Shown here: positions 32,354 to 54,487 of the stretch, one piece after another | Layout: each line of letters opens with the position of its first letter | Position numbering within the stretch: the stretch's first letter is position 1 | IMG/VR virus record: IMGVR_UViG_3300032327_000792 | Source: a virus | Lineage: Duplodnaviria > Caudoviricetes | Strand: one strand, 5' to 3' | DNA: 64,000 bases | Translations under genes and position numbers: made by a program | Notes under the pieces: generated by a model | What the model was told of the DNA's origin: nothing | Database searches by the model: none | The model's input: the letters and a program-made list of their open reading frames with translations, nothing else

Positions 32354-32986
32354 TTATTTTCCAGCCTTTGCTAGGGCTGCTCCTTTGTTGAAACTGGGCG
32401 ACCATGGACTCATTCCATCTACTCCGCCACGTGCTCTTGACCAGTTGTATCCGGCTCTGTGTCCAGAACAATCCTTGGTACATTCACTGCCCAAAAAACT
32501 CAACTCGTCCAACTGATCCTTGAGAAAGGTATCAGCAAATGCCTTGCATAACTCTCGAATCTTGGTGTTGCGTGTATATTGTGTGTGAAACTGTTTGCCT
32601 TCAAATGTCTGAGCAGGATCTTTATAACCGCAATAAACTTTGTGTATACCGTGCTGTTCAATCAGATCCTGACAACTTTTGCCTTCACGTTCGGCCATGA
32701 ACTCGTTGCAAGGACTCAGTGTGGTTATCACAATACTGCCCTCTGGTACGGGTCCAAACCTGGCAGTGTAGTTGTCAATTGCTGCACGTTCGGCATGTGT
32801 TCGACGACCGTCTTGCGCAGGACGATTGATACCCACTACACAGTTGTTGTTGGGATCCAACACTGCAGCGCCAACCATGCCCAAGTTTTGATTTCCGTAC
32901 TGTCCTTGAATCACCAGTTCACACAGTTTTGTCAAGATTGAATCTAACTTATCATGATTGTGAATTTGGAAGTCGGAGATCCTCAT
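32354..32986 (-). CDS. Zn-dependent cytidine/adenosine deaminase-fold protein with C-terminal Cys module
   Basis: VGAAV, THAERAA, TLSPC-x11-C; tail CTKDCSGHRAGYNW. Confidence 0.8.
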   Translation of the reverse strand: MRISDFQIHNHDKLDSILTKLCELVIQGQYGNQNLGMVGAAVLDPNNNCVVGINRPAQDGRRTHAERAAIDNYTARFGPVPEGSIVITTLSPCNEFMAEREGKSCQDLIEQHGIHKVYCGYKDPAQTFEGKQFHTQYTRNTKIRELCKAFADTFLKDQLDELSFLGSECTKDCSGHRAGYNWSRARGGVDGMSPWSPSFNKGAALAKAGK

Positions 32987-33345
32987 TTTTGTTCACGTAC
33001 CTTGGTAGCAACATTCTTTGCCTTGCCCCTACGTTCAGGATTGGGATCTTGTCTACGTTTCTTGGCAGCACTGGCGGCACGACCTTTTTTGCCCAGAGCC
33101 TGTGCTTTTGATTGTGGCAAACATTTGGGTTTGCCTTCTTTGCTGGATCCTCTGGCACAGTCGCCACGAATCTTGCCATCAGGGCCAAAGCGTACCCACT
33201 TTTCTTTGAACCACTTGCGCAGATCTTCTTCTAGTTCCTCGTTGGTATTTTTCACACAGTTAGGATATCGTTTTCCAAACATGGTCTTCATACCCTCTTT
33301 GTGATAACCTTTCCAGCAGGCCTCAAGGATCTCGCGATATCTCAT
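32983..33345 (-). CDS. Putative internal head protein (basic modules)
   Basis: MRYREILE leader followed by two Lys/Cys-rich modules. Confidence 0.65.
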   Translation of the reverse strand: MRYREILEACWKGYHKEGMKTMFGKRYPNCVKNTNEELEEDLRKWFKEKWVRFGPDGKIRGDCARGSSKEGKPKCLPQSKAQALGKKGRAASAAKKRRQDPNPERRGKAKNVATKVREQK

Positions 33346-34943
33346 TTTTTTGCTTTGTTGCCCCAGTTGGCAGCACCTTTTTTACGACACTGAACCAAGG
33401 CACCTGATGCATAGGCTGACGGCCAAACTTTGTAGCGACTTTTTACTTTGTGATAGCAGGCATCTTGTTCTTCGCGTAATTTATCATCTAGATCCTGATA
33501 CCCATATCCACGTCCGGGAATTTTTATAGGGCTTGAACTTGCAACACTGGCTTTGTCGTTGTCACCATAGAGATCATCTTCAAGATTTTCAATACGGTTG
33601 CTGACTGTGCGTTGAAAACTTCTCAAATTAGGAACGCCTTTGAATTGAAAGCGATCCAGCTCTTGGTTGCGTTTGCTGATGGTCGCAGTTCTGGTAGTAG
33701 GATTGTATTCAACCACAAAACTCTGCATCACCATTTTGGCTGGAATTTCTTGTGTTTCTTTTACAGGAGCCTTTGTAGAACCATATTGTGATTTCATCAA
33801 CTCTTCACTTAATTCATCTTCAAATGGCAAATACCAGAACCAGTTTTGAAAACCGCCTGGATTGGTATCATAGTCCATGTGAGCACGATTTCTGGCGCCG
33901 GTCATCATGCGTTTGAGTTCTAATTCAGCACCATGCTCGATAGCAATGGCTTCCAAGGCATCATACAGTTGACCAGCAAGATAACTGTCACGATTGCGTT
34001 CAATTTTAGGTGCCAGTTCTTGATATTTTTCAGCCAACTCAGTGTATAGATCTTTGACAGCACCTTCTGCTACTGGTCGATTCAATAATTTTTCCAAACG
34101 ACTGATAGCACCTGGTACGTCTGTGCGACCTTGTTTGGCCGACTCTCGACGGCGAGCTTCAATTTCATTGTGTTTCTTTTCACGCTGTGCTGATGCTTTG
34201 TTCCAACGTTCTCGAGCTGTGTCTTGCTCATACATGCCCAAGCGTTGCAGACGACCTTGGTTGTCTAACGTGTAGCCCACATCAAACAACTGTTTAATTT
34301 TTTTCTGAGCCAATTTTTCATTGCCGGCGCGGCGAGCATCTTCGATTTCACCAGCAATAATTCTGGCATTACGGTCATTTTGATTTTCTTCGTGAAACAA
34401 GTGTGTGTCTGGTGTTATAGAGAGTCGTTCTTTTTGTTGAGTCCACGCTCGATTCTTCTTGGCCCATTCTGTTCGTGTCATACCATAGGCATCTTGAAAC
34501 TGTTTGTCTGTCATGGCATTGCGGCCGCGGCTGCGTAAAAAGTCTTGATATTCAATATCAATGTCCTTCATGCGACCTTCTTTGATTCTGATATCTTCAA
34601 AAGGAACATCGTCCATGTTATCTTTGCTGAACATGTCTAATTGATAGCCCACTGGTCCCTTATGAGTTCCATATGCACGGTTCATGTTCTTCTGTGTTTG
34701 AGCAGCACGACGTTGAACCTGTGTGTAAGGTGTGTGAGGCTTGCTGACTATTTGATAACCACTGCGTTTTAATTCTGAATAAGCACGGTCAAACCCTGTG
34801 CCACTGGTATTCCACTGTGGTAGATAATAACCACGATTGTCTTTTTTCAATCTATAGTGTTGCACTGTTTGCGGATCGGCACCAACCACATAGTGTTTGG
34901 TCAACAACACAAACTGGTCTTCAAATAAATCATTCAGTATCAT
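33342..34943 (-). CDS. Putative modular internal head protein
   Basis: MILNDLFE leader; Glu-punctuated modules. Confidence 0.65.
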   Translation of the reverse strand: MILNDLFEDQFVLLTKHYVVGADPQTVQHYRLKKDNRGYYLPQWNTSGTGFDRAYSELKRSGYQIVSKPHTPYTQVQRRAAQTQKNMNRAYGTHKGPVGYQLDMFSKDNMDDVPFEDIRIKEGRMKDIDIEYQDFLRSRGRNAMTDKQFQDAYGMTRTEWAKKNRAWTQQKERLSITPDTHLFHEENQNDRNARIIAGEIEDARRAGNEKLAQKKIKQLFDVGYTLDNQGRLQRLGMYEQDTARERWNKASAQREKKHNEIEARRRESAKQGRTDVPGAISRLEKLLNRPVAEGAVKDLYTELAEKYQELAPKIERNRDSYLAGQLYDALEAIAIEHGAELELKRMMTGARNRAHMDYDTNPGGFQNWFWYLPFEDELSEELMKSQYGSTKAPVKETQEIPAKMVMQSFVVEYNPTTRTATISKRNQELDRFQFKGVPNLRSFQRTVSNRIENLEDDLYGDNDKASVASSSPIKIPGRGYGYQDLDDKLREEQDACYHKVKSRYKVWPSAYASGALVQCRKKGAANWGNKAKK

Positions 34944-37852
34944 TCTATGAATCCTTGCATACGTGCTGCTTTTTCTAGTTGCGTCATACGATCTCTAATG
35001 AGTTGTCGATCAGCATAACTATAACCTGGTGTGTCTAATTGTTTTGCCAAATGCTCACGTTTGTCATAGTAATCATTTTTGTCACGTAACTTGTTGTTTC
35101 CGCCACGGTTAAATGTGTCAGCCTCGGGTAAACGTTCGCCTGTTCTAGCACTACGAGCTGTGCTGGATCCGGGTTCGTGTGGCTCTGGTTCTGAACCTGT
35201 CTCAGAATCTGTGCCAAATCCATAATCAAATTTCTTCACAGTCTTGCCTTTGTTGGCATAGTGCTTGCGAACCAGCGCCGGATCAGTTTCATCGCTGGGC
35301 ACACGTAGTCTTGTGGTTGTACCATCTGTAAAATGCACAGTCCAAGTTTCTGGGCCGCTTTCTTTTAGTTCTAATTCTTTCTTAGAGTACATTTGTCTAG
35401 CTAGATCAACTGCCGCGGCATTGTGAAATTTTTCAACATCAATGCCAAACTCATCAGCATACTTTTGAGCAAGTGCATCACGTATTTTAGCAAACTTTGG
35501 AAAACTATATTTTAATGCTTTCATTGGAGCACCATTTGGATCTCTTAAATCTTGTACATATTGATTTAAAACATTTTCTTCATCGGCGTTCAGTTCTTTT
35601 GCTTTTATTTCGTGTACATCTTTCCGGGGTGACCATAGGGCTTTACGCATGCCCAGGTACTGTTGCAATGCGCCTAACTGCCGTTGATACTTGGCCATCA
35701 TGTCATCATAGGCAGTGTCAATGTCGGCTGTGGTAAAATAATCTTCCAAGTCGGCTGCCAATCCACGTGGTAACATACGTCCACCACGTGTGGCACGAGC
35801 TTGTAGTCGTTCTATGTCTTGTTTGATACTGGCCAAGTTATCAATACGTTGTTTTTTGCTTTGTAAATCACTCAGGCGGGTTGGAATGGGTTGTGGTTCT
35901 ACAGAAACAACTTCTGTTGATGCTGTGGGTTGGGTCTGTTGATTTTTCCAACGATGCAACTCTTTTGCAGCCTTGTCCGGTAATGCTTCAGCCACTCGCC
36001 GCATTGGCAGTGCTACATCTCTGTCGTCAATGTCCTCAGGATACTTGTCTTCTTCTTCACTGTTGATAATTCGGTTGATCAATGTGGAGTGATATTTTGG
36101 ATTGCCAGCTTTGTTGGTTCCTGTGCCAATAATTCGACCACCGCGGCTCACAGTGACACGACCTGTGTCGGGACTGTAGTCCACTGTGTAACCTTGAATC
36201 ACACTTTTGACAGGAATATTTTCAAGCAACGACTGATCAGGTGTGGAAAGAGGTTCAACATACGCACCTTTTTGTATGATGTATTCATAGATGAATTGAC
36301 TCAAGAAAGTTGGATCACTGAACAGGTTGAATACTAAATTTCTTTTACTTTCTCCTTCTGGCAAAGTGTTGAGAATACTATACAATTCTTTAATGTGTTT
36401 TTTCTTGATAAACAATGGACGCATACCGCCAATGCCGTCGATCTCTACGGTGTTCAATCCTTTCATATAGGCATCAACAAATCTCAGTAGATTGGCTTTG
36501 GCCAATGTGCTTTTTGGATCAACTGCACGTGGCACGGCATTTTCTTCCAGCCCAGAGGCCATTTGGCCCAATGTATCGTTGGCAGCATTGTCGGCAGCAG
36601 TTGCGGTTGTTTGTCTGGTTTTCTTTGTGTCAGTGCCTGCGGTTGCTTTATTTGTCTGAACCAGACTCAAAGGAACAGGTCGTTGAACTTTTCGAGCTTT
36701 TTCTCCACTGGCCGGTTCAGGTATTTCTGCAGCAGATTGTTCTGCATCAGGAGTTTCTGCAGGAGCCCGACCGGCGGCCTGAGCAATTGCTGACATAGCA
36801 GCACGTCCAGCTTGAGCAGACTGTTTTTCTTTGCGAGTTTGCAACTGCTTCATTACACTGGATGATTTTTCAAGTTTTTTAACTTGTGCTTGTAATTCTT
36901 CAATTGACTTGTTGAGTTCTTTGACCTGCGCTGGATCAACCTTTTCGCCTTGATTCAGAAGAGCGTCCCACATAGATTTTTGACTCTTGAGTGTGTCAAT
37001 TTCTTTCTTGAGGCCAGCCACTTGTGCTCTTGCACCAACATCCAACGGAGTAAAATCTGGAGCACTGGTCTGCGGCGTACTGGGTTCAACATACAATGGA
37101 ATTTTGTCTGTGGCCACACTCACACCCGGTTGTGCCGGCGTTGGTTCTGTACGACGTTGACTCATTGAAGTCAGACGTTGGGCTAACACAGCATTGGCCT
37201 GACGCAACTGTTGAACAGTCTGTTGCAAGCTACGTTCTTCACCTTCTAGGTTGTCAATTTCTGTGTCTTGTTGTTGATTGATTGCAGTGATCTGTTTCAA
37301 CAACTCATCCTGTTGACGGTTGACTCCTTTGAGATCAGAAATATTTTTTTCAGTTTTTTCTTGATTTGCAAACTCGTCTTTGACCAAAGCTTCAATGTCA
37401 CTGTTGGCCGATGGATATTTTGCACGAATTTTTTGTAGTTCTCTTGCTACCTGTGCATCTGAAGCAGTTTTTCCACTGAGTTCTTTGTTTTTCTTCTCAA
37501 ACAATTTCATTTGTGCTATGTGATTCAACATTTTTATTGTTTGATTATAGCTGGTCAATACCCGATACATAAAATTAAATTTGCCCATGTCTGGCAAGCT
37601 GTCGTAGTAGGCAATGATGTCAGGGAAATATTTTGGATCAATGCTGTATGTGCGATCATCTAAAAATGTCAGCTGGGCTGGTTTGCCTTTGGGTTCATAA
37701 TTGATAGCATTGATCAATGCTCCCATGTTGGCATTGCCCAATGCACGATGTTGGCTTCCTGCTTTTTCTGGATTGACCGGCATATAGCTAGATTTTGGTC
37801 TTGGATCTCCTTCGGGAGTGCCGGGAGTTTCAAATAGGTCAAATACAATCAT
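34940..37852 (-). CDS. Putative modular internal head protein with coiled coils
   Basis: MIVFDLFE leader; 970 aa. Confidence 0.65.
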   Translation of the reverse strand: MIVFDLFETPGTPEGDPRPKSSYMPVNPEKAGSQHRALGNANMGALINAINYEPKGKPAQLTFLDDRTYSIDPKYFPDIIAYYDSLPDMGKFNFMYRVLTSYNQTIKMLNHIAQMKLFEKKNKELSGKTASDAQVARELQKIRAKYPSANSDIEALVKDEFANQEKTEKNISDLKGVNRQQDELLKQITAINQQQDTEIDNLEGEERSLQQTVQQLRQANAVLAQRLTSMSQRRTEPTPAQPGVSVATDKIPLYVEPSTPQTSAPDFTPLDVGARAQVAGLKKEIDTLKSQKSMWDALLNQGEKVDPAQVKELNKSIEELQAQVKKLEKSSSVMKQLQTRKEKQSAQAGRAAMSAIAQAAGRAPAETPDAEQSAAEIPEPASGEKARKVQRPVPLSLVQTNKATAGTDTKKTRQTTATAADNAANDTLGQMASGLEENAVPRAVDPKSTLAKANLLRFVDAYMKGLNTVEIDGIGGMRPLFIKKKHIKELYSILNTLPEGESKRNLVFNLFSDPTFLSQFIYEYIIQKGAYVEPLSTPDQSLLENIPVKSVIQGYTVDYSPDTGRVTVSRGGRIIGTGTNKAGNPKYHSTLINRIINSEEEDKYPEDIDDRDVALPMRRVAEALPDKAAKELHRWKNQQTQPTASTEVVSVEPQPIPTRLSDLQSKKQRIDNLASIKQDIERLQARATRGGRMLPRGLAADLEDYFTTADIDTAYDDMMAKYQRQLGALQQYLGMRKALWSPRKDVHEIKAKELNADEENVLNQYVQDLRDPNGAPMKALKYSFPKFAKIRDALAQKYADEFGIDVEKFHNAAAVDLARQMYSKKELELKESGPETWTVHFTDGTTTRLRVPSDETDPALVRKHYANKGKTVKKFDYGFGTDSETGSEPEPHEPGSSTARSARTGERLPEADTFNRGGNNKLRDKNDYYDKREHLAKQLDTPGYSYADRQLIRDRMTQLEKAARMQGFIE

Positions 37853-39514: not shown

Positions 39515-40480
39515 TTAAAGACTAAATGGATCTATGATCACAATTTGGCCGTCTTTTCTACGACCCAAGTTTTCAATTGAACGCAAATCCAACGGTGCTA
39601 GTCCGCCAACGGCATCTTCGAGATCCTGTGTGGCCATGACCAATCCGTCTACTTGTTCTTCTGACAATCCCAGCGGTCTTTTTTTGTTTTGGTAGAATGC
39701 TGCCAGGGCTTGTTCACCACGAGGTAGGGCACTCATTAGATCTTCAATGTATTCCAGTACCTGGTCTTCGCCTGACACAGGGCCAAGATATTCCATTTCG
39801 TACACAAAGTAGGTTTCGCCATCCACCTCAAAATCACCAGCGTTGTAAATTCTTGGATAGTGTGGATTGCGTTGATTACGCAGAAAAAAGCCCACATAAG
39901 TTTTTACTATGTCTTCACGTTCGTCTTCGCCAATGCCCACAACTTTGAGCACTGTGCCACGTGGGCTTAGAAATGCTATTTGATCACGGCCTTCACCAAG
40001 ATAACCATAGCCACGATCAACAAAGTAATCTTGTATGCGCTGACTAACTGACAATTCATCTTCGTCGTTGATTTCGTTGATTGGTTGCCAAGTCATTGCT
40101 TTGGCACCTTTGGTGATAGGGTTGAATCCGTGGCGCTGGTATAGTTTGGTCAATGATTTTTGACTTATTTTTCCTTTGGCCCAAGGGTACAATGTTAATG
40201 TAATGCCCGCCGACTGTGCTTGACGTTGCAGTTCTTTGATGGCACGACTGCCTATGCCCTTGCGTTGCTCAGGACCGGCCATTAGCCAATCTATTTCCAC
40301 TGTGTTAGAATCAATGCCGGGTTTGAGTTTGAATGCAGCAAACTGTTGATCTTGACCTGTGCCCCAAACCATGACTCGATCAGCTTGACCATAGGGCCAT
40401 TCTGGGTACTGACTGTAGACCTGATCTATCCAGGCCTGTGCTGTACCTGTGTTTTCAACTAAGAATTCACAAGCTCGCAT
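39515..40480 (-). CDS. GNAT acetyltransferase + protein-kinase-like fusion
   Basis: QRKGIGSRAI acetyl-CoA loop; after INEINDE come LGEGRDQIAF, VLKV, DLRSIEN and IIDP. Confidence 0.7.
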   Translation of the reverse strand: MRACEFLVENTGTAQAWIDQVYSQYPEWPYGQADRVMVWGTGQDQQFAAFKLKPGIDSNTVEIDWLMAGPEQRKGIGSRAIKELQRQAQSAGITLTLYPWAKGKISQKSLTKLYQRHGFNPITKGAKAMTWQPINEINDEDELSVSQRIQDYFVDRGYGYLGEGRDQIAFLSPRGTVLKVVGIGEDEREDIVKTYVGFFLRNQRNPHYPRIYNAGDFEVDGETYFVYEMEYLGPVSGEDQVLEYIEDLMSALPRGEQALAAFYQNKKRPLGLSEEQVDGLVMATQDLEDAVGGLAPLDLRSIENLGRRKDGQIVIIDPFSL

Positions 40481-40708
40481 TTATTCAAAGTCCACTGACT
40501 CTTGTACTAACTGTTTTGTTTTTAATTCTTTTACTGATCCCACATGGTGGTCTTGTATTTGATACTGTTGTTTGAGTATGGTTCTTGCAATTTGTGCGTT
40601 GGGTGCCCAGACCTGTGCGTCAACATAGCCCACATAGTTGGGTTGATTGACACGAACTTTGGCTGTCCAAAGTCGGGCGGATTCTGTTACGAACTCACGT
40701 AATCTCAT
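40481..40708 (-). CDS. Small putative internal head protein
   Basis: MRLREFVTE leader. Confidence 0.65.
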   Translation of the reverse strand: MRLREFVTESARLWTAKVRVNQPNYVGYVDAQVWAPNAQIARTILKQQYQIQDHHVGSVKELKTKQLVQESVDFE

Positions 40709-40714
40709 AATATA

Positions 40715-41533
40715 TTACTTATTCTTCTTTTTTCCAGACTTCATATTGGCACACCAATGATACATCTTGGCTTTTTCTCCCGATGCATTTTTAGCCTTGC
40801 GACGTAGATCAGTTACTGATCCTGCACAACTGGCACCTGCACGTTTCACACGTCCTGGACGGCTTTTGCCTTTAACTTTACCGTCAGCAAAGTTTTCGTT
40901 GGTGGTCTTGCCCTGTATTAGATTTCTCACTCGATCAATCACATGATTCACACTGCTCAAGGTGGCATGTGAAAAACCCTTCATCACTGTTCGATCCTGT
41001 TGAACCATCGCATACTGATATATCTTGGAGCTGGTACCGCGTTGTATGCTGAAAATCTTGTTGTCTCTGTTGAAGAAGTGTGCAGAGTTGGCACCCAATT
41101 CCTGATCCCAACCTTGACTGTCAAAAAACACACGATATATGTTGAGTATGTCATTCCAACTTAGATTGTAGTCGTTGCCTCCCCACGGGTCATGTTCAGG
41201 TGGCACAAATTCATTGAGAGTTTCTTGATCTTCCCAAACTCTTTGATCACCACGGTGTTTGTCCCAAAATCCCCGGCCTGCATCGGTTTGATCCCAACTT
41301 CTAACAATGGTATAGCCATTGTCTTTTAGGTAATCGTACATATTGGCCGCAATGCCCTGACCGTGATAACGTTCATCAACCCATACAGTTTGTGGATCCA
41401 ATCGACCCTCTTGGTCAAAGAAAAATTCTGCATGGCCTAAATTTTTACCACCGGCAGTAGCTTTGACAGCTACACCGTCTGCATTCCGACTGATCAACAG
41501 TTTGTATTCTAATAGGAATTCTCGAGCTCTCAT
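40715..41533 (-). CDS. GNAT-containing modular protein
   Basis: MRAREFLLE leader; VWVDERYHGQGIAANMY GNAT motif A; basic Cys tail. Confidence 0.7.
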   Translation of the reverse strand: MRAREFLLEYKLLISRNADGVAVKATAGGKNLGHAEFFFDQEGRLDPQTVWVDERYHGQGIAANMYDYLKDNGYTIVRSWDQTDAGRGFWDKHRGDQRVWEDQETLNEFVPPEHDPWGGNDYNLSWNDILNIYRVFFDSQGWDQELGANSAHFFNRDNKIFSIQRGTSSKIYQYAMVQQDRTVMKGFSHATLSSVNHVIDRVRNLIQGKTTNENFADGKVKGKSRPGRVKRAGASCAGSVTDLRRKAKNASGEKAKMYHWCANMKSGKKKNK

Positions 41534-42618
41534 CGGGCACTCGCTACAAAACGTAAGTCTCTACTGATAGATCCCAACTCTTTTTTCATTTTGGGGCCAG
41601 CACGTTTGACGTCTGCACGTGACACATGAGTGTCGGGTTCGTCCTGGGTTGTTACATTAACAGGCTCATCGGTGCGTGTGTCAAAGCCGTGTATGTTCAA
41701 CTTACGACCATAACGCTGTTCTAGTTCTTGCCACACACGATAGCCACCTTCACTTTGCTTGTTGTCGCTGATCAGTGTGAGTCCCTGGTCCAGTATCAAA
41801 AAAGCATACAAATCTGCAGCACGGTATTGATTTCGAGGACCTGAATAAACACCCTGAATGACAAAGCTGTTGGGGTTTGATCGATAAGGACGACCTGTGG
41901 TGCCCAATTGACTGGTGCGTGTGTTGGTGTTAAACACATAGTATGTGACTGTGCCACGATTGTTCCATGACCATAGTTCGAACCCGTCACCAAGATCAGC
42001 AACTAAATTGCCTAAGTATTCAGACTCTTTGCCTGAGGGAATAGGTTTGCCATCATTGGGCATGAGATCCAAATGTTCTCTTTTGCTTTTGGATTGTGTG
42101 TTGACCATGGTCACTTCCATTATACCAGTGGCTCTACGCAATCTCAAATCATAGTCTCGATCGCTTTCGTATTTGGTAATAAAATCGTCGTAATAGCGTT
42201 TGGCGTCAGCAGGAGTGTCAGCTTCAAAACTGTGAACTATTTTATCAGGTGTTTCGGCATGATAGATTTCATAGCTTCGGTTGAGTCTGTCACGTACACG
42301 AGCCATGCGTTCTTGTCTAGCGTCAACCTGACGGCCAGCACGATCAAGATAGCGTTCCAACTTATCTCTACTGATTTCATTTACTTTATCGTTCATTGGG
42401 CGTTTAATGCGTACCAATCTGTTGGTACTGGGTTCTATGGTATAGCCCAGCATGATCAACTGTTTCATAATTTGTCTGGCCTGATCCATATTGGGCACAT
42501 GACCGTCACTGTTGTCCAGAGCATCCATCATGAGATTGTACAAAATCATAGCTTTTTGCGATGTGCCAGACTCAAATTCGTTAGCACGAATCTCAGTTAC
42601 GAACTCTTGAGCTCTCAT
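41530..42618 (-). CDS. Modular protein with C-terminal GNAT-like domain
   Basis: MRAQEFVTE leader; RAADLYAFLI...LISDNKQSEGGYRVWQEL. Confidence 0.65.
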   Translation of the reverse strand: MRAQEFVTEIRANEFESGTSQKAMILYNLMMDALDNSDGHVPNMDQARQIMKQLIMLGYTIEPSTNRLVRIKRPMNDKVNEISRDKLERYLDRAGRQVDARQERMARVRDRLNRSYEIYHAETPDKIVHSFEADTPADAKRYYDDFITKYESDRDYDLRLRRATGIMEVTMVNTQSKSKREHLDLMPNDGKPIPSGKESEYLGNLVADLGDGFELWSWNNRGTVTYYVFNTNTRTSQLGTTGRPYRSNPNSFVIQGVYSGPRNQYRAADLYAFLILDQGLTLISDNKQSEGGYRVWQELEQRYGRKLNIHGFDTRTDEPVNVTTQDEPDTHVSRADVKRAGPKMKKELGSISRDLRFVASAR

Positions 42619-45600
42619 TTTTTCTTCCGGTCCAACATGTTGTAAGGATGTCTTTTGTCGTTCATGTATTCCACAGCTAACAGCATCACAGAATTCTTGG
42701 CTGACTGTGGCACACTGGCCCAACTGCTGTAGCCATTCTTTTGGGCAGCCATGTTCATGAATTTTCTGGCTCGTTCAGCATCACTTTCTGTGCTTTCGCC
42801 TAATTCGGGTCTTGGATCTACGCTACGCAAATATATGTCTGCCGCAGGATTCTGTTGCTCCAGGTTAGTCTGCACTACATTGGCTTGGTTATAACTGGCA
42901 TTGGTCATTGAATGAATAACCCGTCCGGTTATGCGATCCACAAATTCCCAATTGCGGCGAACTTCTGTGGCATCTTGAGGTCGGTCAAAGTTTTGTGCTA
43001 TATCTGGCTCAATATCATTCACTGCTTGCGCTACTCGCCAGCCATAGTTTTCTGTGTCTGCAGGCATGCCTTGATTGCGTAGCCAATTGCTAAACTTGTC
43101 ACCAGCATCCGCCGCATCATCTGCTCGGTACCGTAGTATCACACGATTGTTTCTGCGATCCACAATTTCGTACTGATCTGTGGCCTGAACACGTTGTTGT
43201 AGGCGTTGGCTGTCTACAGCGTTGTCCACTGCTTGTTTAACACCGGTGGCTCGTTGCACTGTGAAGTTGCCTGTGTCCAAATTCTTGTCCTGCAAGTATG
43301 TGATCGCAAAGTCCACAGCCTGAGCCTGACTGGATGCCTGGAATGTGTAGAATGGTAGGCCACTGTGTTTGTTCAATACCACATAGTCTTTGGGTTGAGC
43401 AATTTGTTTGGCCAATTTGGCTCTGCGACTGAGTTTGGGTTCGGGTTCAGTTTTTCCTCCGCCGTAGGGCTCAATGTAGAATGGTATGACATCAGTGTAC
43501 TTTTCACGAGCCTGATCAGCGGCTTCGCCACGTGTGGCAGCATCAATGATTTCCAATGTTTCGTTGTTGTCTTTGCGCATAACACGCCATTGACCTGTGT
43601 TGGTACCCACATCACGCAGTTCGTAGGCCTGCTTGAAATCCATCATGGAACTGGCCGGACTCACACGAGCTTTGGCACGTTCCAGTGCGTCCAGTTCTGT
43701 GTAGTTTGAAAACTCTAGGCCTTCAACTGGTTTGTTGGTGGATCTGTTGTAGAGCCTCCACGAACTCTTGCCTCCTGTGCCATCAGGAACTTCCTTGTTG
43801 ATTACTTTTTCGGCCCATTGTTTTTTGAGTTGTTCAGCAGTGAGTTCACCAGCACTGAACTTGCTGAACAGTTCCAGGTCCCGGTTGCCTTCAGGAGCAA
43901 TTAGCTTGTATAGTTTTTTGTAGTATTCAGGACGCTCTAAGTCAGGACGACCAGCTAGATACATGGCATAGGCAAAGCGACGCATGGTTGATGCCAACAC
44001 GTCTGCTTCACCCTGATCGCCTATGCTTAGGTAATCGCCGCCAGGTGATCTAAATTCAATATAGCCAGGCTTGATATGTGCTGATGTATATTTGGAACCA
44101 CCCACGCCTTGCTGTACATATTTCTGTGCTAACTCAAGCAAATTGCTCTTCATCAACTCTACAGCAGAGGCAATCTTAGGACTGCCACTGGCCACGTTTT
44201 GTTTGATCTTTTTCATGGCCGAAGCAGTGTAGGTATTGGCAGCACGTCCAAACTTGTCCAGCACATACTCGTCACCCATGAACAAGATCAATTTCAAGTA
44301 GTCAACATCACCACCTTTGAATGGTATTGATATGCCCATGTGCAAACCTGTTGAATCGTTGGTGTAAGCATAACCGTCGGAATTGGCCCATGCAATCACT
44401 TTTTCCATCTGTTCAATGGCCTGATTCAATGGCAGTGGTGGACTCACAAGTTCCAATCCAGCATCATCTCGATTATCTGGGCTCAAACTTGAGTCTGGCT
44501 CCAGCACATATTCGTTAGGCACACGACGGGCGGAGTGATAACCTGATCCCACAACCACACGTTTGCCCAGTACTGTTTCAAGTTCGGCAGCAATTTGAGA
44601 CCAGTCACGAGATCCTTCGTTTCTGCTGCTGGTGTTGGTGTAGTAAGGCCAATCCAAATTGTACTCGTTCATGACATCGCTCATCCAGCGTAGACCTATG
44701 TCTGAAAAGAAGCCAGAATCATCCGCATCGTAGCCATTGCGGAATTCATCCAGTGCAGCGTCCCAGTTTGCACCTTGTTTGCGAACTTCATCTTCAACTA
44801 GAGCATCCAATAGATCTTCTGCTGCGCTCTGGGCATCCATGTATTTTTGATACAGGGGATTTTCTTTGGCGTATTCTTGTTGATCGCTGTATTTGGTAAA
44901 GCGAGGAGCCCGTTCGCCAGCTTGAATAATCTCATTCATTTCATCATCAGTTAAATCCAACAACTCCAACTGTTTTTGTATTTCAGTGTCTTTGTCCCAA
45001 TCGCCTTCGTCAACAAGCACCTTACGAATCAAGTCTTCGGCCTCTTGTTCAAAGTCACGCATGATTTGTTCATCACGCCACTCAAAGTAGGCTTCATCCA
45101 GTCTGTCTCTCAATCGATCGGCTTGACGTTCACTCATGCCATATCCACTGTAGTCGTTGGAGAAAAATTCAACAACTTGTTCAATACTGTAGGCACGTTC
45201 GTCCATGTCCATGTCGGCTTCCATGTCATCATCGCTGTCGTCATCTTCACTGCTGGTGTCACGGAATATCAATTCTGCTTCAAAGCCGGCCAAAATACCT
45301 TCGGCTTCGGGTGAATCAGCAAACTTACGCAGAGCTGAAGGACTCATCTTGACTTCGTCTAGCTGTACACTTTCAAACAAGTCAGGATCAAAATCATCAG
45401 CTGAAATAAAGTGAGTGGTGCCATCTCTGTGCTGCAGTTGAACAGCATCATCTTCGGATTCTACTTGACGTATGCTCCAGCCCAGGCTGTTTAACACAGA
45501 TTCAATTTGCGGTTGACGGTCTGTGGCATTCCACCAACGATTGGCCAGCACAAAAATAGGATCTGGAACATCATCGTTGCGGTCACGCCCAGGGCCGGGT

Positions 45601-47861
45601 GCAAATTCATTCACATTGTATGTGGGGTCAGTTTTGATCTTTGGACCGGGACGTTTTACAGGATCCACAGGATCAATGTCAGTGACATCCAGCCCTGTGG
45701 CTTTTATGTCACCAATGAACTTGTGTTCTGTATCTTCGTCACCAAAGCTGATGATGGTACTAGGAGGACCCTGTCCAAAATCGTGTTGCCCTAGACCTTT
45801 CATGTTTGGAATATGTTGACCCAGTTTGTACCAGTCGTACACATCTGAAACATCCACACGTAGCGTGCCAGCTGGCATTGTGGGTTTGAATTCTGGACCA
45901 GGCGGTCGTTGGTTGCCTAGAGCATCTAGTTTAGAGCTCACACGGCCAGTTTCTTTGAACTCGCGTAGGGCATTCTTAAGACCTTTGATCAGTAACTCAG
46001 GATGTCCTTGACTGTCTGTGTTCAAACTCAACTTGTTGGCTTCTTTGCCCACTGCTCCGGGCTGAACATCCACACTCAACGCATTGCTGAACTGTGGTAG
46101 CTTTGCTTGTTTACGTGTGGGAATATAACCCGAAGATTCTTTTACATCATCTTTGTTTTGCATCTGTTTCTGTAGCTGATACAAACGACTTTGATTCTTT
46201 GCGTTAGCTGATCCAGGACCTTGACCCTGTGCTCTTAAAAAATTCTGTAGTTCTTGATCCAGTTCGGCCTTGACACCGGCCCGGTTCATGTTTTTCACTG
46301 TTTGTGCTGTGCGTGCCGCTGTTTGTGCATCTCGAACAGTGCCAGCAGTTGTAGTAGCACAGCCAGGAGTACCTGCTATGCATGCGGCTGCTGCTATTGC
46401 ACCTAACTTTTCTTTTACACCCTCTTGTGTGGGCTTTCGGCGAGGTTTGAAAGGTACCAGCATGTTGGCCGGCAATCTCACAGTTTCACCTGTGTCAGCG
46501 TCTGTGATGGTGACCATGTGACCAACCTGTTGAATCACAGTTCCGCCCTTGGGCAACATTTTGAGACCATAGTTATCAATTACACCGTCGCCGCGTTGGA
46601 ACATCTTGCTTGAGCCCAAACTGTAAGTGGCTTCCATGGTGTGCTCAGTATCAAACAATTCAGGGTGCAGTTGTCCGTATTCACGCATCAGCACACCAGC
46701 TTGAGCATTGGCTTCGTTTTCGTATTCACTGCCTGTGACACCTGCATCGTCAGGTATGTCAGCAACTTCACCTTGACGCTGATGTGTGAGCTCGTGTGCT
46801 ACTGTGCGCAATATGTCCATGACATGGCGATTGGCCAAGCTCACAATCAATTCATTGGTGTCATGATTGTAGCTGCCAAATGTTCGGTTGCGTTTGCTCC
46901 ACACAGGATCACGTTTGAAACGTATCCGGGGCGTGTTTTCAATACCTAATTTTTCAACACAAAAGTTCACAAAGTCTGTGACAGTGTCTTCTGTGGTGGG
47001 TGCAGATTCCTGTATGCTTTCTCCACCACCACCATCGCCTCCTCCACCGTCGGCAGGAGCTTCACCGGAACCGGCAAATCCAAATCCGGGATACCAATAT
47101 CCACCAAAGCCGTATTTTACTTTTTTCTTTTTGGCTTTCTTTTTGCGGCGTTCATTCAAACTCAACTCTGCATCTTTGGCTGCTGCTCTGGCACTGTATA
47201 ATTTTTTAATTGCGCCTTGATTGCGCAACATCTTGAAGGCCAGGTTTTCAGCACCCAGTTCACCGTGTGCATCAAGTCCAGCTTGACGCATGTTTCGGAT
47301 TTTGTTTGCCAACTCTGCAATGGCGTCGCCATCCTGAGAAGCCACAGCAGATTCAATTCTGTGTCCAATGTCTTCATACTTTGACTTCACTGCTTCGTCG
47401 TTGACAGTGGCACGTTGCTTGAGTGGAATTTTTACCCAGTCATTGTTCAGCACACTGTATATGCCCTGGCTCACAGGTTGCTTGCGGGCATCTTCTACAT
47501 AGAGCTCTACATCATAGCCGCCAATGGTGATGTTGTGTTGATCATTGTACTGATACTTTTTGGCATCAAACAGTTCGCGATATACATCATCGGCATCTGC
47601 CTGAGGAATATCTACCACTAGATGTAGATCAATGTCTGAATAGGGTGTGTAAGTGTATCCGGCATTGCTACCTGACACAGTAATGTCTTTTACTTCTATG
47701 TCACTGAGTCCTAGAAATTCTTTAAAATCCTCGGCAATTGCCAACAGGCGCTCACGCACCTCGGGTTTCATTTTTTGCCCGGACCAAACCACTGGATTTA
47801 AAGTGTTGTTGAATTTAACAGCATCTGCTAAATTATAGGAATCTAATTCTGTGATGTTCAT
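42615..47861 (-). CDS. 1748-aa polyprotein: Pol-beta-type nucleotidyltransferase, zincin-like domain, amidoligase, C-terminal repeats
   Basis: GSNAGY...SDIDLH plus DVELY; AHELTH; GFEAE...DSSL...LELVSPPL...TGLHM...IEFR. Confidence 0.75.
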   Translation of the reverse strand: MNITELDSYNLADAVKFNNTLNPVVWSGQKMKPEVRERLLAIAEDFKEFLGLSDIEVKDITVSGSNAGYTYTPYSDIDLHLVVDIPQADADDVYRELFDAKKYQYNDQHNITIGGYDVELYVEDARKQPVSQGIYSVLNNDWVKIPLKQRATVNDEAVKSKYEDIGHRIESAVASQDGDAIAELANKIRNMRQAGLDAHGELGAENLAFKMLRNQGAIKKLYSARAAAKDAELSLNERRKKKAKKKKVKYGFGGYWYPGFGFAGSGEAPADGGGGDGGGGESIQESAPTTEDTVTDFVNFCVEKLGIENTPRIRFKRDPVWSKRNRTFGSYNHDTNELIVSLANRHVMDILRTVAHELTHQRQGEVADIPDDAGVTGSEYENEANAQAGVLMREYGQLHPELFDTEHTMEATYSLGSSKMFQRGDGVIDNYGLKMLPKGGTVIQQVGHMVTITDADTGETVRLPANMLVPFKPRRKPTQEGVKEKLGAIAAAACIAGTPGCATTTAGTVRDAQTAARTAQTVKNMNRAGVKAELDQELQNFLRAQGQGPGSANAKNQSRLYQLQKQMQNKDDVKESSGYIPTRKQAKLPQFSNALSVDVQPGAVGKEANKLSLNTDSQGHPELLIKGLKNALREFKETGRVSSKLDALGNQRPPGPEFKPTMPAGTLRVDVSDVYDWYKLGQHIPNMKGLGQHDFGQGPPSTIISFGDEDTEHKFIGDIKATGLDVTDIDPVDPVKRPGPKIKTDPTYNVNEFAPGPGRDRNDDVPDPIFVLANRWWNATDRQPQIESVLNSLGWSIRQVESEDDAVQLQHRDGTTHFISADDFDPDLFESVQLDEVKMSPSALRKFADSPEAEGILAGFEAELIFRDTSSEDDDSDDDMEADMDMDERAYSIEQVVEFFSNDYSGYGMSERQADRLRDRLDEAYFEWRDEQIMRDFEQEAEDLIRKVLVDEGDWDKDTEIQKQLELLDLTDDEMNEIIQAGERAPRFTKYSDQQEYAKENPLYQKYMDAQSAAEDLLDALVEDEVRKQGANWDAALDEFRNGYDADDSGFFSDIGLRWMSDVMNEYNLDWPYYTNTSSRNEGSRDWSQIAAELETVLGKRVVVGSGYHSARRVPNEYVLEPDSSLSPDNRDDAGLELVSPPLPLNQAIEQMEKVIAWANSDGYAYTNDSTGLHMGISIPFKGGDVDYLKLILFMGDEYVLDKFGRAANTYTASAMKKIKQNVASGSPKIASAVELMKSNLLELAQKYVQQGVGGSKYTSAHIKPGYIEFRSPGGDYLSIGDQGEADVLASTMRRFAYAMYLAGRPDLERPEYYKKLYKLIAPEGNRDLELFSKFSAGELTAEQLKKQWAEKVINKEVPDGTGGKSSWRLYNRSTNKPVEGLEFSNYTELDALERAKARVSPASSMMDFKQAYELRDVGTNTGQWRVMRKDNNETLEIIDAATRGEAADQAREKYTDVIPFYIEPYGGGKTEPEPKLSRRAKLAKQIAQPKDYVVLNKHSGLPFYTFQASSQAQAVDFAITYLQDKNLDTGNFTVQRATGVKQAVDNAVDSQRLQQRVQATDQYEIVDRRNNRVILRYRADDAADAGDKFSNWLRNQGMPADTENYGWRVAQAVNDIEPDIAQNFDRPQDATEVRRNWEFVDRITGRVIHSMTNASYNQANVVQTNLEQQNPAADIYLRSVDPRPELGESTESDAERARKFMNMAAQKNGYSSWASVPQSAKNSVMLLAVEYMNDKRHPYNMLDRKKK

Positions 47862-47895
47862 AGTGTATTTATTGGATCTTTTGTTATAACATCTT

Positions 47896-47927
47896 AAAGA
47901 AAAAGCCGCTGATTAGGCGGCTCTTTT
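47896..47927 (-). terminator. Rho-independent terminator
   Basis: AGCCGC-7nt-GCGGCT hairpin followed by a T-rich tract on the minus strand (and TTTT on the plus strand). Confidence 0.75.
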
Positions 47928-50696: not shown

Positions 50697-51404
50697 TTAT
50701 TTAGCCACCAATTGTGAGGTCTTGCGAATTAATCCCGGTCGGATCAATGCCAGCATGGTCAACCAAGTGCGGTTGTTGTAGTCCACAAAGAAATAATCCT
50801 GTGTGCGTACAAAAGGCAGTGATAACCATGCTTTTAATGCAGGGCTAATTCTAATGTCAGGCTGATTGTTAAAGAAATTCAATAGTTGATCTTTTTCTCC
50901 AGCAGTCAGCTTGACATTGCGGAAATAGCTTCTGTATTCATGTCGAGGATTGAGCAATGCAATGGTATTTTTGGCACGCACAACCACAGCCTCGGTGTAC
51001 TTTGCCTCACGCACAAAAGGCAAACGTCCAATGCGTTCCAGCAATACAGAATTGTTGCTGTAAATCCAACATTGATTCACCGAAATTACTATTTTGTAGG
51101 GTTCAGTTACCTGTTGTAAAAAGTCAACAAACGCATACAATTCGTCACGAGTTTGATCAGTAATAGGCTGATGTTGGCGCACAAAGTTATTTTGTGGCCA
51201 GCGAGTACGCACACGTTCACGCCACTGTTTTCGGTGGTTCAGTATATCAGTGATTTTTTCAATGTCCAAGGTGTTACGCAACGCAGTGGCTTCATTCAGC
51301 CGCAAGCGTATGCAGTATTGCCAGTGATCGTAAAACAATTGATCACTGTCAATGGACTTAAAGTTTGGGCTTTGTTGGGTCAAGGACAATGTATCCATCC
51401 GCAT
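50697..51404 (-). CDS. Hypothetical protein
   Basis: 235-aa ORF; start uncertain (overlaps the clpA end). Confidence 0.65.
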   Translation of the reverse strand: MRMDTLSLTQQSPNFKSIDSDQLFYDHWQYCIRLRLNEATALRNTLDIEKITDILNHRKQWRERVRTRWPQNNFVRQHQPITDQTRDELYAFVDFLQQVTEPYKIVISVNQCWIYSNNSVLLERIGRLPFVREAKYTEAVVVRAKNTIALLNPRHEYRSYFRNVKLTAGEKDQLLNFFNNQPDIRISPALKAWLSLPFVRTQDYFFVDYNNRTWLTMLALIRPGLIRKTSQLVAK

Positions 51405-53634
51405 CTACCACCGGAACGGGTATAGGTTCTTGTATCACAAATGTCACTGCGTCACCGTCAAGTTCGGCATGCAACACACAGTCACTCAATCGGTCAAACA
51501 AAATACGTTTACTCAGTGGCACGCGAATTAATTCATCAATTTTGCGTGACAATGGTCTGGCACCCATTTTGGGATCGTAGCCTTTTTCCGCCAACAAATC
51601 AATCACTGCTTCGCTGAGCGTTAATCGGATGCCTTTGACACTCAAACTTGTTTGCAATTGATCCACAAATTTGATCACAATCTTTTTGATGGCCAATTGG
51701 TCTAATTTCACAAACTTGCACACTTGATCAATACGATTGCGTAATTCAGGTTTGAAGAACTCTTTCATGGCCCGGTCTTCTGATCCTGTCTTTTCCAGGC
51801 TCTGTCCAAAACCAATGTTGTTTTGTTCATTGTCACGGGCACCCAAATTTGACGTCATAACAATAATGCAGTTCTTTAGATTCACAGTTTTACCATTGGC
51901 ACTGGACAATCTACCTTCGTCCAACATCTGCAACATGATATTGATCACGTCCGGATGAGCCTTTTCAATTTCGTCAAAAAGAATGATCGAAAATGGATTT
52001 TTTGAAATGTCTGAAATCAGCTTGCCGCCACCTATGTTGCCGTCTTCAAAGCCCACATATCCTGGAGGAGCACCAATCAAACTGGATACAGTATGCTTTT
52101 CTTGATATTCGCTCATGTCGTATTTCAGCAACTGCATGTCTAAATTTGCACTTAATAATTTGGCCAATTCTGTTTTGCCAGTGCCTGTTGGACCCATGAA
52201 CAAGAACGACGCAATGGGTCTGTTTTCATTGCCGATGCCTGAGAAGTTGATATACACACGCTCTAGCACAGAATCAACAGCGGCATCTTGCCCGTACAAC
52301 TTTTGCTTGATATTGGATTCCAAATCCACAATCTTGGCTGAACGTTCATTTTGCAATCTATCCAAGGGAATATTAGCAACTCGGGACAACTGTGCCATAA
52401 TCATTTCTTTTGTAATGGTCACATTGCCCTGATCTTTTACACGTTGTCCAGCACAGGCTCCATCAATCAAATCAATTGATTTGTCGGGATTTTTACGATC
52501 ATGAATATAACGTCCTGATAATTCCACAGCAGCAGTCATGGCTTCTGTGTCAATCATCACATTGTGGAAAGTTTCCAAGCGTGGGCTCAATCCAATGAGA
52601 ATTTGCTCAGTGACTTCTGCTGTGGGTTCATCCACAGACACTCTATGGAAACGACGCATCAGGGCACGATCTTTTTCAAATGATTCGTAGTATTCTTCCC
52701 ATGTGGTTGACGCCACCACTTTTAAACTACCTTTGGTAATGGCTGGCTTCAACATATTGGCAAAGTCCAGGCTTGAATTATTGCCAGCACCTGCACCTTT
52801 CATGGTGTGCGCTTCGTCAATGAACAAAATACAATTGCCTTTGCTTTCCAATGCGCCAATTACTTGCTTGAATTTCTCTTCAAATTCACCGCGATATTTT
52901 GAGCCTGCCAACAAAGATCCAATTTCCAATCCCCATACTTCGTGGCCTCGAAGAAACTCCGGCACACGTCCTGCTATAATTTCCTGTGCTAGGCCATCCA
53001 CAATGGCAGTTTTGCCCACACCAGGATCGCCTACCATCAGCACATTGGCCTTGAATCGACGGGCCAACACAGTGATCATTTCATCCAATTCTGAACTGCG
53101 TCCAATCATGGGTTCCAGCTTGTTTTCTTGAGCCAATCTTGTGAGGTTGGTACAGTGTTCTTCCAACACTTCTGTGGCCTGCTGAGTGTTTAGCTTGACA
53201 TCCTTTTGGTTGTAGTTCTTGCCGTAGAAGTCCACGAACTCAGCTTTCTTTACACCGTACTTCAACAAGAAGTAATGAGCATGACTGTTGGTCTCGGACA
53301 TCATGGCCAAATAAAGATCCACTGTGGTAACACTGCGACGCCCTGTGAACAACACCTGTGTGAGAGCACGATTAAAACAACGTTCCAGTGCATTGGTCTT
53401 TTTGGGTTGTATGTCGCCTTGTTTGATTAGATTGACCAGGCTGTTTAAGTATGCCTCTAATTCTTCTTCAAACATGACCACATCCGTGCCGTATTTTTCC
53501 AACACTTTGCGAAAGGCAACATGACGAATCATGGCCAACAACACATGTTCTGTCAGCACATATTCATGTTGCTTGGTTCGAGCAATTTTGACTGCTTCGT
53601 CAACAATTTGTTCAATTTCAGGATTGTTTTGCAT
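51358..53634 (-). CDS. clpA: ATP-dependent Clp protease ATP-binding subunit ClpA
   Basis: Clp N-domain, two AAA+ modules (GDPGVGKT, GPTGTGKT), IGF ClpP-docking loop (NNIGFG), MGARPL. Confidence 0.93.
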   Translation of the reverse strand: MQNNPEIEQIVDEAVKIARTKQHEYVLTEHVLLAMIRHVAFRKVLEKYGTDVVMFEEELEAYLNSLVNLIKQGDIQPKKTNALERCFNRALTQVLFTGRRSVTTVDLYLAMMSETNSHAHYFLLKYGVKKAEFVDFYGKNYNQKDVKLNTQQATEVLEEHCTNLTRLAQENKLEPMIGRSSELDEMITVLARRFKANVLMVGDPGVGKTAIVDGLAQEIIAGRVPEFLRGHEVWGLEIGSLLAGSKYRGEFEEKFKQVIGALESKGNCILFIDEAHTMKGAGAGNNSSLDFANMLKPAITKGSLKVVASTTWEEYYESFEKDRALMRRFHRVSVDEPTAEVTEQILIGLSPRLETFHNVMIDTEAMTAAVELSGRYIHDRKNPDKSIDLIDGACAGQRVKDQGNVTITKEMIMAQLSRVANIPLDRLQNERSAKIVDLESNIKQKLYGQDAAVDSVLERVYINFSGIGNENRPIASFLFMGPTGTGKTELAKLLSANLDMQLLKYDMSEYQEKHTVSSLIGAPPGYVGFEDGNIGGGKLISDISKNPFSIILFDEIEKAHPDVINIMLQMLDEGRLSSANGKTVNLKNCIIVMTSNLGARDNEQNNIGFGQSLEKTGSEDRAMKEFFKPELRNRIDQVCKFVKLDQLAIKKIVIKFVDQLQTSLSVKGIRLTLSEAVIDLLAEKGYDPKMGARPLSRKIDELIRVPLSKRILFDRLSDCVLHAELDGDAVTFVIQEPIPVPVVDADGYIVLDPTKPKL

Positions 53635-53701
53635 ACGGCCCTTTGTTGTTATTGATGTATGTATATATTATTATACACTGAAATTTCGTTATAACGCAAT
53701 C

Positions 53702-54487
53702 TTATTGGGTGTGTTTGATTCGAATCAGATCCAGCAATTCTGAGTCAATCTTCGGGGGCAAACTGCCTTGTATCCGGATCAGTATATCGCCTTGCTGACC
53801 TGATCTATGGCGTAGTCCACGTCCTCGTAGTCGCAGCGTGGTTCCGGGCTGACACATGGGCGGAATAGTGAAAACTATTTCGGTGCCCAACACGTCTCTA
53901 ATTCTGGCATTGGTGCCCAAGATCAAATCCCACACCGTGGCAGTGTGTTCTGCTGTCAAATTAAGACCTGACCTAAACCAACGCGGATCAGGATGAATTC
54001 TAAATGAAACAATTAAATCCATACCACCCGGCGCCAGTCCTGGGTACTGTACAGAATCGCCATCATCAATGCCTAGAGGAATTTCAATGTCTACTGCCTG
54101 TGTGCCTGTTTGGGTGCCCACGGATACAGTTCTACGACCGCCCTGTGCTACATCACGCAACTGTATCCATAGGCTCATTCTGGCCTGCTGTGGCCTGCGT
54201 TGTCCTTGTCCAAAGCGTGCACCAAATATGTCAAATATTGTGTCAAAGTCAAAGCCCTGCGGTCCACCGTGTTGTCCAAACGAGCCAAAGTTAGGCTGTG
54301 GATTGTCGTACTGCGCTCGTGCTTGTGGATCGCTCAGTGTGCGGTATGCTTCCTCTATTTCTTGAAACTTCTTTACATCTCCACCCTTGTCCGGATGATG
54401 TTGGCTGGCCAGCTTTCTATAAGCACGTTTGATTTCGTCGGCATCAGCAGAGGTTTTTACACCTAGAGTTTCGTAATGGTTTTTCAT
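53702..54487 (-). CDS. DnaJ-class (CbpA-like) co-chaperone
   Basis: J-domain with HPD, G/F-rich linker, C-terminal domain, no Zn finger. Confidence 0.9.
   Translation of the reverse strand: MKNHYETLGVKTSADADEIKRAYRKLASQHHPDKGGDVKKFQEIEEAYRTLSDPQARAQYDNPQPNFGSFGQHGGPQGFDFDTIFDIFGARFGQGQRRPQQARMSLWIQLRDVAQGGRRTVSVGTQTGTQAVDIEIPLGIDDGDSVQYPGLAPGGMDLIVSFRIHPDPRWFRSGLNLTAEHTATVWDLILGTNARIRDVLGTEIVFTIPPMCQPGTTLRLRGRGLRHRSGQQGDILIRIQGSLPPKIDSELLDLIRIKHTQ

Follow-up and report, generated by a model that had tools for sequence, protein, structure and literature searches.

The virus record IMGVR_UViG_3300032327_000792 (Duplodnaviria; Caudoviricetes) contains, within the 64,000-nucleotide stretch analysed here (the window, part of a viral contig of 85 kb in IMG/VR with a rated completeness of 24%), a single gene, P0001, whose product combines a predicted nucleotidyltransferase (NTase), a predicted zincin metallopeptidase and a predicted amidoligase. 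A preliminary description of the same DNA had claimed an open reading frame of 1748 aa and regarded the product as a precursor that delivers three activities; the reading frame is real, all 1748 codons being open on the minus strand. The modules are joined by the motif of the T4 head protease and are therefore probably packed into the capsid, cut and injected; the polyprotein is, in the reading preferred here, probably a late-made, head-packaged cargo that is matured by the prohead protease and ejected. The view of a precursor with three activities gains support from the catalytic folds, the junctions between modules, the protease encoded by related phages, the leaders of neighbouring genes and a promoter-like element; the AMPylation and the glutamylation or peptide ligation that had been part of it, however, are not assignable from sequence or fold.

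Phage lineage, module junctions and leaders

The family of the polyprotein is large, and its sources are mostly uncultured phages of about 310-370 kb. With clustering at 50%, 3864 cluster representatives match residues 286-1352, and at least 811 relatives of the full-length type are present at 90% clustering, many of them on contigs of 310-370 kb. NCBI holds one member, named only 'Putative amidoligase enzyme [uncultured Caudovirales phage]'. The whole architecture was found in none of 50,697 GenBank phage records, where tblastn matched only solo NTase or ligase pieces, and a megablast search with the gene gave no match. Five relatives of 316-344 kb were searched for head genes; two of them have terminal repeats, and completeness is at least 90% for four and 89% for one. 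All five encode both Peptidase_S77 (E 1e-24 to 1e-28) and the Gp23 capsid protein (E 1e-98 to 1e-100), and the lineage is therefore that of the T4-related jumbo phages, the polyprotein's own phage being, as judged from these sequences, a member of about 340 kb. The capsid protein of the relatives contains YLKE|NAS near the position of FLTE|AEIGG in T4 gp23. In the relatives L051-L055, this gp23-type protein is only about 400 aa long, and its propeptide, of about 40 residues, ends in YLKE|NAS.

Among the Glu positions, 52 columns are conserved in the family, and 11 of these have a conserved L, I, V or M two residues earlier. Seven of the 11 (237, 285, 480, 752, 830, 836 and 1689) are positioned between modules and one is at residue 5, while only three are found inside a folded domain, all in confidently folded regions of the ligase. 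Glu575 is also located at a module boundary, with a hydrophobic P3 residue in about half of the sequences. In the AlphaFold2 (AF2) models the junction sites fall into coil or low-pLDDT segments (184-225, 288-292 and 469-475 in model 1, the N-terminal coil in model 2). At the junctions both P3 and P1 are conserved and P2 is variable, a pattern corresponding to the specificity of T4 gp21, which cuts after L/I-X-E (PMC9026906). Ahead of the ligase, L-x-E precedes V-x-M-S-P in 203-209 of 209 modules. Furthermore, cassettes of 2-785 aa have been gained or lost exactly at the junctions, each ending in its own x-x-Glu, and the NTase, zincin and ligase modules are also found as solo genes. The earlier claim that Glu sites separate most domains thus holds for position and conservation, since 7-8 of the 11 conserved sites lie at module junctions; it does not hold for the number of bare motifs, as discussed below.

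The four genes directly downstream of the polyprotein gene carry leaders like those of the T4 internal proteins (IPs), and comparison of their starts suggests one cargo locus together with the polyprotein (Table 1). Their products of 362, 272, 75 and 321 aa start with MRAQEFVTE, MRAREFLLE, MRLREFVTE and MRACEFLVE, respectively, and the stop and start codons overlap. The polyprotein gene is followed by a run of genes with leaders of the MRAxEF[VL]xE type at each of the 16 related loci compared. As read from the T4 record, ipII and ipIII start with MKTYQEFIAE and ipI with MKTFKEF; in the T4 leader, targeting depends on residues 4 and 7 and processing takes place at residues 8 and 10 (PMC9026906). 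T4 Alt loses a propeptide of about 7 residues through gp21 (PMC9026906), and the start of the polyprotein, MNITE|L, resembles that of Alt, MELITE|L. Solo ligase genes occur as well; their products start with MR[YF]xx[FIL]..., and QLDE|V follows within 10-25 residues. Further along the minus strand, at 32983-37852, genes of 970 and 533 aa start with MIVFDLFE and MILNDLFE, leaders of a second type that has x-F-E at its end, and a gene of 120 aa starts with MRYREILE; these may be further cargo or polyproteins.

The preliminary description had correctly placed ATAAATA exactly 4 nt before the ATG of the polyprotein gene. It forms part of the element AATAAATA, and the arrangement xxTAAATA-N4-8-ATG is conserved in 13 relatives though the flanks diverge. 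In the relatives L047, L048 and L050, GTAAATAT is found about 30 nt before the head operon, with the same core at a normal leader distance. The late promoter of T4 is TATAAATA. By analogy, the TAAATA elements suggest late, nearly leaderless transcripts. In the window, xxTAAATA stands 3-8 nt before the ATG, without a Shine-Dalgarno sequence, at the gene starts 59491, 50690, 49677, 47861 and 39483 on the minus strand, and most other genes of the window have AGGAG-type sites. The genes with xxTAAATA starts may form a class of late, leaderless transcripts.

From these features we infer late expression, packaging, cleavage and ejection, and with them all substrates of the polyprotein, as follows. 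The gene would be transcribed late from the TAAATA-type promoter, probably as a leaderless mRNA, and the polyprotein would be incorporated into the prohead core. There a gp21-type prohead serine protease would cut after Glu at about residues 5, 237, 285, 480, 575, 752, 830/836 and 1689, and the pieces would be ejected with the DNA, as are T4 Alt and IPI-III. The predicted products are an MNT-type NTase of 26 kDa, a basic and Gly-rich peptide of 48 residues, a minimal zinc metallopeptidase, small cassettes (one or two), the module U1, and a carboxylate-amine ligase of about 95 kDa, GS-like and ATP-dependent, that would retain its helical insert and the C-terminal repeats. The host would thus receive small peptides, basic or hydrophobic, besides the larger products. 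Once released, the enzymes might target macromolecules or metabolites of the host within the first minutes after infection, in take-over or counter-defence.

The contents of related polyproteins point in the same direction. Among P0150, P0205 and P0033/P0070/P0087, an SLT transglycosylase with LysM, an N-terminal cytidylyltransferase with a C-terminal NT5C 5'-nucleotidase, and sigma-70 region 4 were recognised; viral protein clusters with Fe-SOD domains were among the matches of the Atlas fold search. The SLT and LysM, nucleotidase and cytidylyltransferase cassettes and the SOD clusters fit the role of ejected cargo.

Table 1. Features of the polyprotein locus, listed from the region upstream of the gene to the genes downstream of it; positions are those of the window.
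Feature	Residues	Position	Strand	Basis or remark
Terminator-like GC-rich hairpin and T-run ending the upstream gene		47896..47923	(-)	Read from the sequence; conserved in L002/L005
Late-promoter-like element AATAAATA, 4 nt before the ATG, no Shine-Dalgarno sequence		47866..47873	(-)	Arrangement conserved in relatives
Polyprotein open reading frame P0001, 1748 aa		42615..47861	(-)	Stop-free reading frame; homologues
Predicted Pol-beta/MNT-type NTase with C-terminal helical half	1-237	47151..47861	(-)	Starts MNITE|L, ends with invariant SL-x-E237
Linker peptide: Lys-rich, then Gly/aromatic-rich, then acidic	238-285	47007..47150	(-)	Bounded by LNE237 and IQE285
Predicted minimal zincin metallopeptidase	286-405	46647..47006	(-)	H356-E-L-T-H360, Q363, E365 and E381/E383 invariant
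Small beta module, weakly SH3-like	406-480	46422..46646	(-)	Optional cassette, in few relatives only; ends [VIL]-x-E480
Optional cassette: conserved hydrophobic Cys segment (LGAIAAAACIAGTPGC), then helices	481-575	46137..46421	(-)	Ends x-x-E575
Conserved module U1	576-752	45606..46136	(-)	Ends V-N-E752
Variable cassette site (2-785 aa in relatives)	753-836	45354..45605	(-)	Ends LFE830 and invariant LDE836
Predicted GS-like carboxylate-amine ligase (Amidoligase_2)	837-1352	43806..45353	(-)	Core split after first strand (GFEAE)
Helical subdomain inside the ligase core	893-1068	44658..45185	(-)	Same length throughout the family
Five divergent beta-beta-alpha-type repeats of about 45-50 aa	1353-1748	42618..43805	(-)	[VIL]-x-E1689 conserved close to the C-terminal end
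Four genes downstream, with leaders like those of T4 IPs; one putative cargo locus with the polyprotein		39515..42618	(-)	Comparison of start sequences

Enzyme modules and small cassettes

The first module is assigned, from its sequence features, to the Pol-beta/MNT-type NTases. The motif described earlier (GS...DxD and a third acidic residue) is present as S63-G64-S65, D76-I-D78 and E119, all of them invariant in the 36-sequence family alignment, with the Pol-beta spacing G64-S65-x10-D76-I-D78 and the third carboxylate in V118-E119. After addition of distant solo homologues (36-41% identical), G64, D76, D78 and E119 were still invariant and S65 was found in at least 90%. The match to PF01909 (E 2e-3, 18.9 bits) lies under the cut-off of 21; PF01909 is, however, among the precomputed annotations of several homologues, and in the best Atlas cluster 45% of the members carry it. 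A profile search against PDB sequences gave weak matches only (E 0.09-1.3), all to MNT-type proteins. The module belongs to the virus-specific PHROG 36119 (E 5e-44), and solo genes of 236-243 aa, ending just after SLxE, are common. With the minimal NTases of the MNT/KNTase group (PF01909) it shares G[SG]-x10-DxD, the third carboxylate, the order of an NTase core followed by a helical half, and the direction of its weak profile matches; it differs in its score below the cut-off, in its virus-specific family and in that a HEPN partner was not noticed. NTases of the MNT type adenylylate either proteins or small molecules. The poly-Lys/Gly linker that had been described behind this module was found at residues 238-285.

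The zincin and the ligase were modelled, and the AF2 models support both folds. The fold assignments of the modelled domains are based on VIA Z-scores, AFDB and BFVD matches and Pfam; Foldseek searches against PDB were weak for both models (E about 1e-2). For residues 286-405, the model (pLDDT >90) is that of a minimal zincin with a Wss1/SPRTN/IrrE-like fold. Its structural matches in VIA were Wss1 (Z 9.1, 99 aa, 2.7 A), SPRTN (8.2), selecase (7.8) and PprI (7.6), minigluzincins being among the closest neighbours, and in BFVD it matched IrrE-like solo proteins of phages (E 7e-13). The HELTH motif had been rightly located at 46782-46796 and corresponds to residues 356-360; the active-site residues H356, E357 and H360 are invariant, likewise Q363, E365, E381 and E383. 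Pfam matches remained below threshold and were scattered over DUF3920, DUF6782, Peptidase_M78, Tox-MPTase3 and SprT-like, and a profile search against PDB sequences returned nothing significant. As a solo gene the zincin module measures 122-177 aa, and it was matched in viral clusters or proteins with differing enzymes (NTase, cytidylyltransferase, NT5C, Fe-SOD and AAA).

Residues 837-1352 are modelled (pLDDT 93) as a GS-like carboxylate-amine ligase whose fold spans both halves of the core. All the amidoligase motifs named previously are present: GFEAE at 859-863, DSS at 1123-1125, ELVSP at 1137-1141, H1174 and EFR at 1269-1271. The motif residues do not vary in the 36 close homologues, and ten residues (E861, E863, D1123, S1125, E1137, H1174, R1206, E1269, R1271 and R1295) are invariant in 119 diverse sequences. 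PF12224 matches with 36.6 bits against a cut-off of 22 (E 5.8e-9), and relatives reach 62-68 bits. In VIA the top 10 matches of the model were all GS-type ligases (Z 10.0-11.6, about 195 aa aligned over model residues 5-480), with Dop, PafA and YbdK at Z about 8; in AFDB the model matched 'Amidoligase enzyme' clusters (E 3e-7). A profile search against PDB sequences gave nothing significant. The ligase thus resembles the Amidoligase_2 / GS-GCS2-PafA superfamily in its Pfam score above the cut-off, its GS-like fold and its invariant E-x-E, D-x-S, E, H and E-x-R, and differs from it by a helical insert of about 175 aa after the first strand and by the C-terminal repeat array. Ligases of the GS/PafA type form gamma-glutamyl or isopeptide bonds. 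The amidoligase is indeed split, as had been stated; the supposed acidic insert, however, is mostly a folded helical subdomain of about 175 aa (pLDDT about 97) with only about 10-15 disordered residues. The repeats noticed at the C-terminus were likewise recovered, as five units of about 45-50 aa that are divergent and detect each other weakly (i-E 0.015-0.2). A feature search of the ESM-Atlas gave no usable hit for them, and a YegP-like identity was dropped since Pfam showed no DUF1508 match.

A solo homologue of the ligase is found in a cultured phage of 490 kb, Agrobacterium phage Atu_ph07 (MF403008 155929-157431), as a 500-aa 'hypothetical protein' (AUZ94978.1). Its gene is two genes away from a T4-like portal gene.

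Between zincin and ligase, the conserved module U1 consists of a first part with the motif region SGYIPT..DPRF..ALTVD (pLDDT 64-76) and a second half forming an alpha/beta ACT-like domain (residues about 660-745, pLDDT about 90), for which VIA gave a weak ACT-like match (Z 5.6, residues 664-729). For U1, which is strongly conserved, Pfam gave no match, the PDB profile search nothing significant and the ESM-Atlas feature search no usable hit; this lack of matches is no sign of a new fold. In P0360 and P0379, relatives of 364 aa, the motif SGYIP..DPR..ALTVD makes up the C-terminal 55 residues of NT-DUF5661 proteins, with L-x-E before it; the motif peptide may be a separable basic peptide. In the cassette preceding U1, the conserved hydrophobic segment with two Cys residues (residues 486-501, 46359-46406 on the minus strand) stands right behind the junction Glu and is predicted to be disordered. 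In appearance the segment recalls a signal peptide or a membrane-spanning stretch; a lipoprotein signal was rejected after a manual lipobox check, the h-region being too short and interrupted by charged residues.

Competing explanations and known systems

Several observations weigh against a packaged and cleaved polyprotein. The bare motif is short and its copies in P0001, 25 in all, are about what chance would give by a rough composition estimate, for which reason the junction evidence is one of position and conservation and not of number. The density of [LIVM]-x-E between domains is only modestly raised, 2.2 against 1.6 per 100 aa within them (1.4 times), and P3 is not hydrophobic at E575 in about half of the sequences, nor at the ligase/repeat boundary E1357. 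The neighbouring genes have the canonical MRxxEF leader, which is missing from the N-terminus of the polyprotein, the gene adjoins replication and chaperone genes rather than head genes, and solo NTase homologues of cyanophage S-CRM01 are found among early-type genes. No prohead protease gene (PF03420) was recognised on the 85-kb, 24%-complete contig to which the window belongs, the family is known from uncultured phages only, and the polyprotein carries a peptidase of its own that could do the processing. Part of this speaks for a cytoplasmic multi-enzyme protein, neither packaged nor cleaved, that would work in the infected cell as a single-chain fusion of metabolic or host-modifying enzymes and in which the Glu junctions would be acidic linkers or recombination joints: the neighbourhood of the gene includes DNA polymerase, a ClpA/B-like chaperone, DnaJ and a cytidylyltransferase, the N-terminus shows no canonical capsid-targeting sequence (CTS), the number of motifs is not above chance by the composition estimate, and the solo NTase homologues lie in early-type regions of cyanophages. 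We nevertheless consider this explanation unlikely; against it count the conservation of P3 and P1 beside a variable P2, solo ligases with leaders, the invariable linkage of the polyprotein to a run of genes with IP-like leaders, a conserved late-promoter-like element, and a relative with a cell-wall-lytic SLT and LysM cassette, which is typical of ejected proteins.

If the polyprotein is cleaved, the zincin itself could be responsible, freeing the enzymes from a chain made or delivered whole, in cis or in trans, before packaging or after entry and with no part for the prohead protease; in polyvalent proteins, processing has been proposed as the role of the zincin-like metallopeptidases (PMC5512222). 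The invariant active site of the zincin and its association with varied enzymes in viral clusters agree with such a role. The junctions, however, carry the prohead-protease motif, so that processing is probably due to the capsid protease rather than to the zincin; the same T4 gp21 motif also ends the leaders of the neighbouring genes and of solo ligases that lack a zincin, and a solo zincin gene of 122-177 aa fits an effector better than a cis-processing module. Moreover, we know of no minimal zincin of this fold that is specific for Glu at P1. Self-processing thus appears improbable, and the zincin is more likely an effector than the maturase of the polyprotein. Cleavage at many Glu sites is also seen in T4 gp22, gp67 and gp68 and in the inner-body proteins of phiKZ (PMC9026906), and the polyprotein might accordingly be mainly a structural or scaffolding protein of the head core, inner-body-like, with relics of enzyme domains. 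This is very hard to reconcile with catalytic residues of three enzymes that are invariant across about 36-119 diverse sequences, which argue for active enzymes, and with modules that also occur as solo genes.

Head-packaged cargo, the reading preferred above, has its closest parallel in T4 IPI-III and Alt. The likeness consists of a T4-type prohead protease and capsid protein in the lineage, L/I/V-x-Glu sites, a leader close to MKTYQEFIAE in the neighbouring genes and solo ligases and, for Alt, enzyme cargo with a comparable N-terminus. T4 cargo consists of single proteins that lose terminal propeptides only, whereas the polyprotein, with three enzymes and several small modules on one chain, has junction sites at about 7-8 internal positions; its enzymes (NTase, zincin and GS-like ligase) are also not those of T4. 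With polyvalent proteins (PMC5512222) it shares unrelated enzymatic domains together with a zincin-like metallopeptidase, a mosaic, rapidly shuffled architecture and predicted delivery with the DNA; amidoligase is unmentioned in that paper. MuF, portal, ART or DarB-type modules were not found in the polyprotein, whose link to virion or packaging genes is an indirect one, through the locus with IP-like leaders, the TAAATA element and the place of the Atu_ph07 homologue near a portal gene. The cleavage motif of phiKZ, S/A/G-x-E, is unlike the junction motif. phiKZ, 201phi2-1 and SPN3US, whose ejection and inner-body proteins are cut by gp175/gp245, are also jumbo phages, with many head-internal proteins cut after Glu at short motifs, often at multiple sites (PMC9026906); they differ in lineage, gp23 and gp21 of the polyprotein's phages being of T4 type, and their proteins are mostly non-enzymatic or RNA polymerase subunits. 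T4 cargo with a CTS, polyvalent proteins and, in giant phages, Glu-specific cleavage at multiple sites are thus already known. A T4-type enzyme polyprotein, with beads delimited by prohead-protease sites and Amidoligase_2 as the constant bead, appears not to have been described in the literature searched.

In a wider formulation, for and against which the arguments seem to us evenly balanced, the capsid maturation protease would be used as RNA viruses use their polyprotein proteases, one late gene giving a stoichiometric cocktail of ejected products (NTase, metalloprotease, GS-like ligase and small peptides). The cleavage sites would double as splice points at which cassettes (SLT lysin, SOD, nucleotidase, sigma-4 and others) are exchanged or split into solo leader genes, resulting in a protein-level cassette array for host take-over and counter-defence. 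If the cargo reading holds, capsid targeting and prohead proteolysis of the T4 type would apply to large enzyme polyproteins as well as to small single internal proteins, which would explain how many pre-made enzymes are loaded into the heads of jumbo T4-related phages. Environmental phages would then offer hundreds to thousands of candidate injected effectors, and both the widespread phage Amidoligase_2 family and the virus-specific NTase family would obtain a first functional context. The junction rule (hydrophobic-x-Glu in a linker) would make mature products predictable and could be used in mining anti-defence activities. The solo ligase homologue of the cultured phage Atu_ph07 is a possible experimental entry point.

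Other genes of the window

A few genes upstream of the cargo locus, at 51358-54487 on the minus strand, the ClpA/B-like double AAA+ protein (758 aa) is encoded beside the DnaJ-type J-protein (261 aa). At 15568-17907, also on the minus strand, a protein of 779 aa has an N-terminal lipoprotein-type signal (…AIATLSAC), followed by a Gly run.

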